In this document: positions 30,338 to 30,555 of the stretch, piece by piece
Layout: each line of letters begins with the position of its first letter
Position numbering within the stretch: the stretch's first letter is position 1
Virus record (IMG/VR): IMGVR_UViG_2529292906_000009
Coordinates: 3,303-67,302 of that record
DNA from: a virus
Lineage: Duplodnaviria; Heunggongvirae; Uroviricota; Caudoviricetes
Direction: 5' to 3' (one strand)
Length of the DNA stretch: 64,000 bases
Position numbers and translations under genes: made by a program
The notes under the pieces: generated by a model
Database searches by the model: none
What the model was told of the DNA's origin: nothing
What the model saw: the letters and a program-made list of their open reading frames with translations, nothing else

Positions 30338-30364
30338 AAAAAAAACGCCCACCCGAAGATGGGC
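30338..30364 (-). terminator. Rho-independent terminator (GCCCAUC-UUCG-GGUGGGC + U8)
   Basis: 7-bp stem with UUCG tetraloop followed by eight U on minus strand. Confidence 0.6.
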
Positions 30365-30520
30365 AAACTGGAAGCTCGTAACGCACTTCGGAGTTGCCAC
30401 TTAGGCGCATGGTCAACCTGGCAACTCGGTGGTTTGTCTGGGAGGACTAGGCCCAGCCATGCTTACCGCCGCGCCTGTCGCGGCTAACAACTAAATCGCT
30501 CTATAAATCACGATTCATTG
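30338..30520 (-). ncRNA. Candidate structured leader or small RNA between a perfect C1 operator and a UUCG-loop terminator
   Basis: No ORF longer than 15 codons; 9-bp stem GAGTTGCCA/TGGCAACTC plus further stems; bounded by operator 30539-30555 and terminator 30338-30364. Confidence 0.3.
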
Positions 30521-30538
30521 AGGCGATATTACACTAAT

Positions 30539-30555
30539 AAATTTATTAGAGCAAT
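30539..30555 (-). promoter_or_regulatory. C1-operator-like 17-mer, perfect match (17/17)
   Basis: aaatttattagagcaat on + strand, overlapping the dmt stop codon; directs leftward transcription toward tRNAs/tci/ban. Confidence 0.6.

Follow-up and report, generated by a model that had tools for sequence, protein, structure and literature searches.

The sequence analysed here (the window) is a stretch of 64,000 nucleotides (nt) of the IMG/VR virus record IMGVR_UViG_2529292906_000009, of which it covers positions 3,303 to 67,302. The element under study occupies positions 30338-30555, where a C1 operator, a promoter, a structured non-coding RNA and an intrinsic terminator follow one another on the minus strand. 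Around the element the sequence is 99.8% identical to that of phage JL22 and 98.9% identical to that of P1. The window is a P1-type plasmid-prophage, and the element, the features of which are all on the minus strand, is the transcribed 5' leader of its early ban operon. The open reading frame (ORF) of the dmt methyltransferase ends inside the operator, and the leader is followed by genes for two transfer RNAs (tRNA-Asn and tRNA-Thr), past which the P1 record lists tciA, tciB, tciC, a third tRNA and ban. From the predicted transcription start near 30519 to the start of tciA at ~28791, some 1.7 kilobases (kb) of the minus strand hold no translated ORF, and such an untranslated stretch is normally open to Rho in Escherichia coli. 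To judge from its homologues, a domain of ~100 nt within the leader (30484-30389, minus strand) is pseudoknotted and under selection as RNA structure.

The operator agrees with the description of P1 C1 operators, in that the 17-base pair (bp) asymmetric consensus ATTGCTCTAATAAATTT overlaps a promoter, and operator-like sites number 10 in the window against 0.35 expected by chance. The P1 record labels the site as the bivalent C1 operator Oban a/b (formerly Op72), which "controls expression of ban", and places the promoters P1ban and P2ban over it; the P7 record assigns the operator the same role and adds the tRNAs to the controlled genes. P1ban presents a -35 hexamer TTGCTC (30554-30549), a spacer of 17 nt and a -10 hexamer TAATAT (30531-30526), from which the predicted start and a terminated RNA of ~180 nt follow. 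The terminator is a G+C-rich hairpin of 7-8 bp with a UUCG loop (30364-30347) that leads directly into a run of U residues (U8, 30345-30338), as befits an intrinsic (Rho-independent) terminator, and the terminator scan detects it on the minus strand only. Between the terminator and the genes of the operon no other promoter is annotated in P1 and none was detected, so that polymerase must pass a strong terminator to reach them. We infer that derepression yields both the terminated leader RNA and a read-through transcript carrying an unannotated module that resembles transfer-messenger RNA (tmRNA), tRNA-Asn, tRNA-Thr, tciABC, the third tRNA and ban. The original prediction, made from this sequence, had placed the element between a perfect C1 operator and a UUCG-loop terminator, with leftward transcription from the operator-associated promoter and no meaningful ORF, and all of this agrees with the operator match, the terminator scan, the P1 record and the homologues; the ORFs present are short and mechanical, and no frame is conserved. 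The terminated transcript it foresaw is likewise predicted here, at ~180 rather than ~170 nt, and the locus is as it described, but it mentioned neither the annotation of a "dicF-like region" in P1 nor the tmRNA-like module downstream.

Homologues of the domain were collected from annotated phages, plasmids, species-representative genomes (E. albertii, E. ruysiae, Shigella, Citrobacter, Trabulsiella, Erwinia and Izhakiella) and IMG/VR viral contigs. Among the 80 distinct core sequences obtained, 30 diverse ones were aligned (alignment A4), and the fold was modelled with RNAalifold on A4 followed by manual inspection. In the resulting alignment, four helices and a loop-loop pairing are backed by compensatory changes (Table 1). 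Helix P2 closes with a U-A pair in most sequences and with C-G in the P7 type, and hairpin P3 carries a pyrimidine-rich loop of variable length. The 9-bp stem of hairpin P4, in which four pairs show double changes, reads GAGUUGCCA/UGGCAACUC here, GGGUUGUCA/UGACAACCC in the Qin prophage and GGGUAACCA/UGGUUACCC in Izhakiella. Its near-invariant loop of 19 nt contains the CCAUGC that forms the pseudoknot with the internal loop between P2 and P3, and the variable pair of this pseudoknot, C-G here, is replaced elsewhere by U-A or U-G but never by C-A. Across the 30 homologues of A4, 97.2% of the cells are paired and eight pairs have changed on both sides, values that were reached by none of 500 shuffles, and pairing falls to 31-55% when the partners are shifted by one to three columns. 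A covariance model built from A4 finds one copy of the domain in the window. The loops of A4 are better conserved than the stems, a difference that is over-stated because the collection searches required the loop sequence, so that its invariance is partly built in. The minimum free energy (MFE) of the whole leader, -62.5 kcal/mol, is not beyond chance (z = -1.5; 15 of 200 shuffles fold as well), and the evidence for structure rests therefore on covariation. The stretch between the start and the domain has a predicted hairpin of its own and is identical among P1-type relatives, for which reason covariation cannot test it.

Table 1. Position of the ban leader features and of neighbouring genes in the window. 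Where a helix is given, the two ranges are its pairing strands.
Feature	Position	Strand	Description or basis
dmt methyltransferase ORF	end 30546; stop codon 30546-30548		Stop codon inside the C1 operator; ORF list
C1 operator Oban-a (former Op72a)	30539-30555	minus	Perfect 17-mer ATTGCTCTAATAAATTT, zero mismatches
C1 operator Oban-b, overlapping inverted half	30528-30544	plus	Two mismatches
P1ban sigma-70 promoter	30526-30554	minus	P1 annotation mapped onto the window and sequence read
5' leader with predicted hairpin (GAAUCG...CGAUUU)	30488-30519	minus	
Whole domain	30384-30487	minus	Covariance model from A4, 98.3 bits, E = 1.7e-21
Helix P1, CCGCG with CGCGG	30483-30479 with 30473-30469	minus	96% of cells paired, little variation
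Helix P2, CGGU with ACCG	30468-30465 with 30430-30427	minus	Encloses the pseudoknot strand and P3
Pseudoknot, GCAUGG with CCAUGC	30462-30457 with 30412-30407	minus	Internal loop P2-P3 with P4 loop
Hairpin P3, CUGGG with CCCAG	30456-30452 with 30442-30438	minus	Strong covariation
Hairpin P4, GAGUUGCCA with UGGCAACUC	30427-30419 with 30399-30391	minus	9-bp stem
Variable spacer, domain core to terminator	30365-30390	minus	~25 nt; comparison of relatives
Intrinsic terminator, GCCCAUC-UUCG-GGUGGGC, then G and U8	30364-30338	minus	Terminator scan
Short mechanical ORF	30291-30416	minus	Some records annotate a hypothetical protein
Short mechanical ORF	30323-30487	plus	Some records annotate a hypothetical protein
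tmRNA-like module	30333-30130	minus	Directly after the terminator, unannotated
tRNA-Asn	29872-29797	minus	Downstream of the element
tRNA-Thr	29794-29719	minus	Downstream of the element
Third tRNA	28082-28007	minus	Downstream of the element

The structural claims of the original prediction can now be placed. The 9-bp stem it singled out is read directly in the sequence, and covariance analysis, which it proposed for P1-family genomes, does reveal structural covariation across the homologues. Its several stable stems are borne out as four covarying helices and not by folding energy, and, while the element is the non-coding leader it was taken for, the stems belong to a portable domain of ~100 nt common to P1-type elements and lambdoid prophages. 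Protein coding was considered and rejected, given the frame-shifting indels between homologues and the compensatory nature of the stem substitutions; core lengths span 104-112 nt, with differences not divisible by three, and the U-run has six to eight residues, so that no reading frame is conserved, and the antisense strand over the domain is often open for ~35 codons. Also rejected was an antisense relationship to nuoG, to which plus-strand positions 30344-30374 give a sub-threshold Rfam match (21.6 bits versus a cut-off of 33) that implies 13 of 14 bases complementary to the minus-strand RNA; this stretch is interrupted by insertions in relatives from E. albertii and at locus L115, and the match is thus treated as chance.

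The same comparisons bear on the proposal that the element has no function in P1, being only the 3' untranslated region (UTR) and terminator of dmt with a block left over from lambdoid recombination. Such a relic would fit the position of dmt, the first terminator downstream of which is that of the element, the mosaic nature of phage genomes and the fact that phage D6 does without the block. Against it, the four helices and the pseudoknot have been maintained by compensatory substitutions in P1, P7, E. albertii plasmids and many lambdoid lineages, and, between nearly identical flanks, the main difference of the P7 version from that of P1 is a P3 hairpin that has been re-paired. We regard a relic as very unlikely.

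DicF is among the oldest known bacterial small RNAs; its Rfam model (RF00039) is 52 nt long, and its sequence pairs with ftsZ, xylR and pykA. The P1 GenBank record carries a misc_feature, "dicF-like region", that corresponds to window positions ~30328-30431 and takes in the terminator, the spacer and the 9-bp hairpin. Rfam searches at E values up to 10 returned no DicF match in 27500-31000 or in 30300-30560, and at E = 10 no other family on the element in the latter interval, whereas DicF of Qin, as positive control, scores 76.7 bits; these intervals hence lack the RF00039 match of at least 48 bits by which DicF is recognized. The element also lacks the setting of a lambdoid leftward operon in which DicF lies between ydfC-type genes and dicB/kil, the P1 element being located between dmt/Pban and tRNA genes. 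On the other hand, when 5,426 complete E. coli genomes were searched with sensitive blastn, 4,260 of them (about 79%) turned out to have a chromosomal site 77-79% identical to window positions 30483-30389, and 476 further genomes gave a near-full-length match, mostly on P1-type plasmids; P1-type elements keep the domain intact in ~480 genomes and 499 plasmid records. In K-12 the chromosomal site is in Qin, between ydfC and dicB. The homologous block of ~95 nt, helices included, spans positions 1501-1597 of the Qin locus (L003), where Rfam places mature DicF at 1622-1673, and the domain ends ~24 nt before the 5' end of DicF made by RNase E. Downstream of the shared block the P1 and Qin sequences are unrelated.

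Since the homology lies upstream of mature DicF, orthology to DicF was rejected: as far as sequence comparison can tell, P1 shares the structured block directly 5' of DicF, not DicF itself. The blastn match explains the label in the P1 record, which should not be taken to mean that P1 encodes DicF. The best-conserved part of the DicF locus is the structured block in front, not DicF. The presence of the same block, with compensatory changes, at the head of the P1 ban operon shows it to be an independent, mobile RNA module. No function for the block was found in the literature searched, and Rfam holds no family for it; literature searches on P1 transcriptomes and on dicB antitermination gave nothing relevant. 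The locus was already known as an annotation, and the neighbouring DicF is a classic. What appears to be new is the existence of a discrete pseudoknotted domain, distinct from DicF and common to myovirus-type plasmid-prophages and lambdoid phages, that always precedes a terminator and moves as a cassette; these features were not found in the annotation or literature reached, parts of which older work may note. In lambdoid copies the domain as a whole seems to be enclosed by one more helix (GUUGUGG with CCACAAC; in Qin GUUGUGGC with GCUGCAAC, two wobble pairs included), examples being found at 1490-1500/1598-1606 of the Qin locus and at 2499-2505/2604-2610 of locus L006. The 3' strand of this helix is a CACAAC motif, of the type bound by the host small RNA GcvB (PMC4104026), and P1-type copies are without that strand.

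The Qin arrangement suggests a role as a processing or stability platform of DicF-type loci, in which the domain would set the site of the RNase E cut that releases the 3' small RNA and would shield the mRNA upstream, and in P1, as the "dicF-like" label implies, would be a remnant whose 3' module has shrunk to a bare terminator. The short distance from the end of the Qin domain to the RNase E-generated end of DicF (PMC9438474), the biogenesis of DicF by termination plus RNase E (PMC9438474, PMC5069750) and the guidance of precise RNase E processing of MicL by upstream stem-loops (a reference cited in PMC9438474) speak for it. A roadblock, however, needs neither a pseudoknot nor 19 near-invariant loop bases, conservation is higher in the domain than in the small-RNA modules it is supposed to serve, and P1-type elements keep it in the ~480 genomes and 499 plasmid records mentioned above with no seed-bearing 3' module. 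We thus consider this role unlikely.

The association of the domain with a terminator is general. All of the ~105 distinct true homologues have a hairpin and a U-run within ~135 nt downstream, including two (L029 and L030) that were missed by the terminator script and whose long hairpins were found by eye. The terminators themselves are not homologous, and range from DicF and at least six variants that resemble it to the UUCG hairpin of P1. Phage D6 has the same terminator and downstream block as P1 without the domain, while the D6-like plasmids pMUB-MIN14 and p98192 have D6 flanks with the domain inserted at the exact spot, which amounts to the behaviour of a portable cassette; in the compared loci (L151 for D6, L153/L154 for pMUB-MIN14/p98192), the core cassette that is present or absent between the otherwise colinear D6-type elements measures ~130 nt, and in p98192 it is followed by a different set of tRNAs (Arg, Tyr, Thr and Ser). 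Because the downstream block is common to D6, which is without the domain, the terminator hairpin is, on this comparison, to be assigned evolutionarily to that block. Among P1, E. albertii and IMG/VR relatives the spacer (30390-30365) that separates the core from the terminator shows both indels and substitutions, and in pMUB-MIN14 only ~13 nt of it are left. A tandem duplication of the DicF-like terminator module behind the core, with a unit starting CCCCGCCACAACAACCC, was observed at positions 2560-2760 of the locus from Actinobacillus phage vB_Apl-pPE4 (L008), which is otherwise E. coli-like and therefore odd for an Actinobacillus phage record.

The original prediction had offered a small RNA or an attenuator gating the downstream genes, and both ideas still lead, with the exception of an attenuator based on alternative hairpins. 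No complementarity was found between the core and the arms of the terminator, the MFE and centroid folds keep the domain helices and the terminator side by side, and the unrelated terminators of the homologues could not share one switch; the hairpin switch was accordingly rejected. A broader version would make the domain an aptamer-like sensor of a ligand or protein that sets the ratio of termination to read-through and so ties early expression to the state of the cell. The conserved pseudoknotted core, the invariant unpaired bases and the variable terminator are the signature of a transcriptional riboswitch, and a conserved covarying aptamer is indeed found, but no expression platform in which aptamer and terminator compete: fold and inspection reveal no alternative pairing that links the core to any terminator, the core was inserted before a pre-existing terminator in the D6-like plasmids without adaptation, and no riboswitch family in Rfam matches. 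Such conditional attenuation seems quite improbable.

With regard to promoters, the domain begins 35 nt after the Pban start in P1. In phage cdtI it lies ~290 nt beyond a near-consensus pL (TTGACA, 16 nt, CATAAT) and is followed by a DicF-like terminator and then the first ORF; in cdtI, and likewise in 2H10 and Stx2c phages, the repressor gene ends with a terminator of its own and pL comes next. In Qin and mEp460 the domain comes after ydfABC-type ORFs and before DicF and dicB, which in Qin places it ~900 nt from the promoter, behind three ORFs. PHROG searches gave no match to an N-type antiterminator among the ORFs tested, which precede the domain (mEp460, Qin) or follow it (cdtI). Neither 2H10 nor cdtI has an annotated N gene from the repressor gene to the domain, and in a Stx2c phage this interval holds no ORF of at least 60 amino acids. 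The domain is absent from the early and late regions of lambda (N type) and from HK022 (put type). Phages carry a single copy each, and the idea of a further one in rightward or late operons was rejected, none being found in cdtI, lambda or the window.

We tentatively favour, while regarding it as far from assured, the reading of the domain as a cis-acting read-through (antitermination) element at the head of the ~1.7-kb untranslated RNA operon. Transcription from the C1-repressed P1ban would first yield the pseudoknotted domain and, ~25 nt later, the terminator. The domain would be a portable cis element with the transcribing polymerase, or a factor associated with it, as its target rather than the terminator hairpin, and would either modify the elongating polymerase or recruit a factor to it, so that a fraction of polymerases would pass the terminator and stay termination-resistant through the long untranslated stretch. 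The terminated RNA of ~180 nt would then be incidental or, as with StxS (PMC7547250), a further output. In this capacity the domain is proposed as a functional analogue, not a relative, of the HK022 put RNA or of the boxA leaders of rRNA operons. The selection on its structure, its constant placement ahead of a terminator, its cassette-like movement, the need of polymerase to pass that terminator and the lack of an N-type match among the ORFs tested all speak for this reading. Near-invariant loops are as expected for a domain that binds a macromolecule, and the unrelated terminators, taken together with the lack of competition between domain and terminator in the fold, make a hairpin switch unlikely and favour a terminator-independent mechanism. 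There is also a positional analogy, in that lambdoid prophages hold the post-terminator module of P1 behind tR', where it is reached via the Q antiterminator.

Several observations weigh against read-through control. The domain has no similarity to put: a search of HK022 with the covariance model built from A4 (R1) under default filters gave no match, and with the filters off the score over the putL region was -0.2 bits, which led us to reject homology; short motifs are alike by eye (GAACGGCGCG and CCAUGCG) and are not colinear. D6 keeps terminator and operon without the domain, which is thus not indispensable, and the single copy per phage leaves the rightward operons without one. The DicF terminator of Qin still terminates, giving the 53-nt DicF (PMC9438474, PMC5069750), so that any antitermination must be partial. 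Transcripts that read through from dmt would carry the domain too, and the terminator would therefore not insulate the operon from them.

Lastly, a promoter, a structured RNA and a strong terminator with U8 are equally the anatomy of a small-RNA gene. The main rival, a possible if doubtful one, is accordingly a stand-alone early small RNA or decoy, of which the terminated ~180-nt RNA would be the product, acting in trans through invariant loops that bind a host or phage protein or RNA, with the terminator as a mere 3' end, read-through as leakage and, in lambdoid phages, release of the domain by processing. The movement of the cassette between unrelated phage types, always upstream of a terminator, agrees with this proposal, as does the higher conservation of loops than of stems (with the seeding of the searches by the loop sequence kept in mind), and there is precedent in StxS, a regulatory RNA that arises by termination just past a phage late promoter (PMC7547250), and in DicF, which stems from the same type of locus (PMC9438474). 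Conversely, release from Qin (~900 nt and three ORFs) and from cdtI (~290 nt from pL) would require 5' processing, no known RNA family or binding motif in Rfam matches, and, among the hallmarks of Hfq-type small RNAs, the long U tail is present and a conserved single-stranded seed is not. A conventional base-pairing small RNA with a seed in the spacer was rejected, as the spacer is variable among P1-type relatives and nearly absent in pMUB-MIN14.

Should the domain control read-through, it would be a new RNA-only antitermination device and a compact part for synthetic biology; should it act in trans, it would be a widespread early phage RNA. A bolder proposal, and a rather unlikely one on present evidence, is that, after HK022 put, it represents another class of antiterminator RNA that is self-sufficient, unrelated to the first, and rides with RNA polymerase. 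If true, the early operons of N-less lambdoid prophages and P1-type plasmid-prophages would pass their first terminator by such means and long untranslated transcripts would be shielded from termination, which would explain the expression of dicB/kil behind the DicF terminator and of the P1 operon of tRNAs, tmRNA-like module and ban, and the device would be present in most E. coli genomes (4260/5426 complete genomes match).

The 465 nt from the terminator to tRNA-Asn (30337-29873, minus strand) are unannotated in P1. Their first ~95 nt are near-invariant among P1, P7, D6 and D6-like plasmids, over the part aligned, and the whole folds better than 100 of 100 shuffles (z = -3.1). Here, a frame of ten codons with no ordinary start codon (30276-30244, GCA AAC GAU GAU CUG AUG AUG GUA GCG GCC UAA) encodes ANDDLMMVAA and is preceded by UAAAU, an arrangement that resembles the resume site and tag of tmRNA (the E. 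coli tag being ANDENYALAA). Lambdoid prophages have homologues in their late leaders, between Q and the holin gene, and in these, as in P7 and D6, the length and the AND..AA pattern are kept while codons and middle residues vary. IMG/VR contigs with the same context carry the tags ANDDLMMAAA, ANDDVVLMAA, ANDDLMLMAA, ANDEQFLAVA, ANDDQFLAVA, ANDDLMLAAA, ANDDVVLIAA and ANDDAVLMAA, every one of them ten codons plus stop. After the frame come two H-type pseudoknots with several independent compensatory variants. Rfam gave only sub-threshold tmRNA matches on the module, and ARAGORN found nothing at default settings and detected it only with relaxed thresholds; no convincing tRNA-like domain was found. 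The core itself was considered as that domain (ARAGORN, 80% thresholds) and rejected, because its supposed partner lies at a distance of 515 nt, different loci yield different proposals and, in phages without a tag module in the vicinity, these bases covary as helix P2. In sequence, the module has the look of a tmRNA mimic carried by phages, one that covers the messenger and pseudoknot part.

Further observations concern the remainder of the operon and its lambdoid counterparts. A long hairpin, ACAACAGGUAAGGGCGCUGG...CAGCGUCCUUUCCUGUUG, lies at ~30165-30065 (minus strand) and is mis-scored by Rfam as mir-465. Directly upstream of tciA, where the P1 record annotates no RNA, positions 28829-28944 (minus strand) give a near-threshold Rfam match to the enterobacterial small RNA STnc100 (42 bits versus a cut-off of 47, E = 5.5e-7). 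The third tRNA is called tRNA-Met (anticodon CAT) by ARAGORN, versus tRNA-Ile2, ileX-like, in the P1 record, a label that presumes a lysidine-modified CAU anticodon. In lambdoid leaders, both leftward (L029, L030, L075 and L014) and late (L155, L173 and L201), the modules are bracketed by a long conserved helix, CACAACAGGUAAGAGCAUU ... AGUGCUCUUUCCGUUGUGG, which is found around the core as well as around the tag module and encloses T-arm-like hairpins such as GGCAGGUUCAAUUCCUGCC, GGUCCGUUCAAUUCGGACC and GGUAGAGGGUUCGAAUCCCUACC; these bracketed modules could be RNase III stems or tRNA-like pieces.

Among known systems, the 3'-UTR small RNAs MicL, CpxQ and SroC recall the Qin domain in its location in the ydfC 3' UTR, before the RNase E site of DicF (PMC9438474), but conservation of sequence and tertiary structure in the domain is far above what a processing guide needs, and P1 has no downstream small-RNA body. 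Transcriptional riboswitches and attenuators share with the leader a conserved structured core with invariant unpaired bases and a variable intrinsic terminator behind it; they differ in having an antiterminator pairing, of which none was found here, and a ligand, of which none is known, and the cassette precedes unrelated terminators. The lambda 6S RNA and StxS are, like the ban leader, short promoter RNAs ended by a strong terminator that expression of the operon must override, and the terminated RNA can itself regulate in the case of StxS (PMC7547250). There, however, the Q protein is loaded at the promoter, whereas Pban has no known protein antiterminator, and the RNA sequences are unrelated to the P1 leader.

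The put RNA of HK022 suppresses termination through the beta-prime zinc-binding domain of RNA polymerase. Like putL and putR, the P1-type domain is a multi-stem RNA (~70-100 nt) located between an early, repressor-controlled promoter and the first terminators, in phages in which annotation and PHROG searches find no N protein, and it is likewise independent of terminator sequence (put properties from PMC9378689). The two are not homologous in sequence or structure, put consisting of two stems with a triplex and the domain of a pseudoknot, in one copy rather than two, and antitermination by the P1-type domain is a proposal. Closest of all is the dicF locus of Qin, with its ydfABC-dicF-dicB operon. 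It differs in its 53-nt DicF, for which nothing comparable turned up in the window even at E = 10, in its terminator, P1 having another one behind a variable spacer of only 25 nt, and in the placement of the domain in the 3' UTR of an ORF cluster instead of next to the promoter. Nevertheless, the two loci have in common 77-79% nucleotide identity over ~95 nt, helices maintained by compensatory changes and the same layout of domain, short spacer, terminator hairpin and downstream operon genes.

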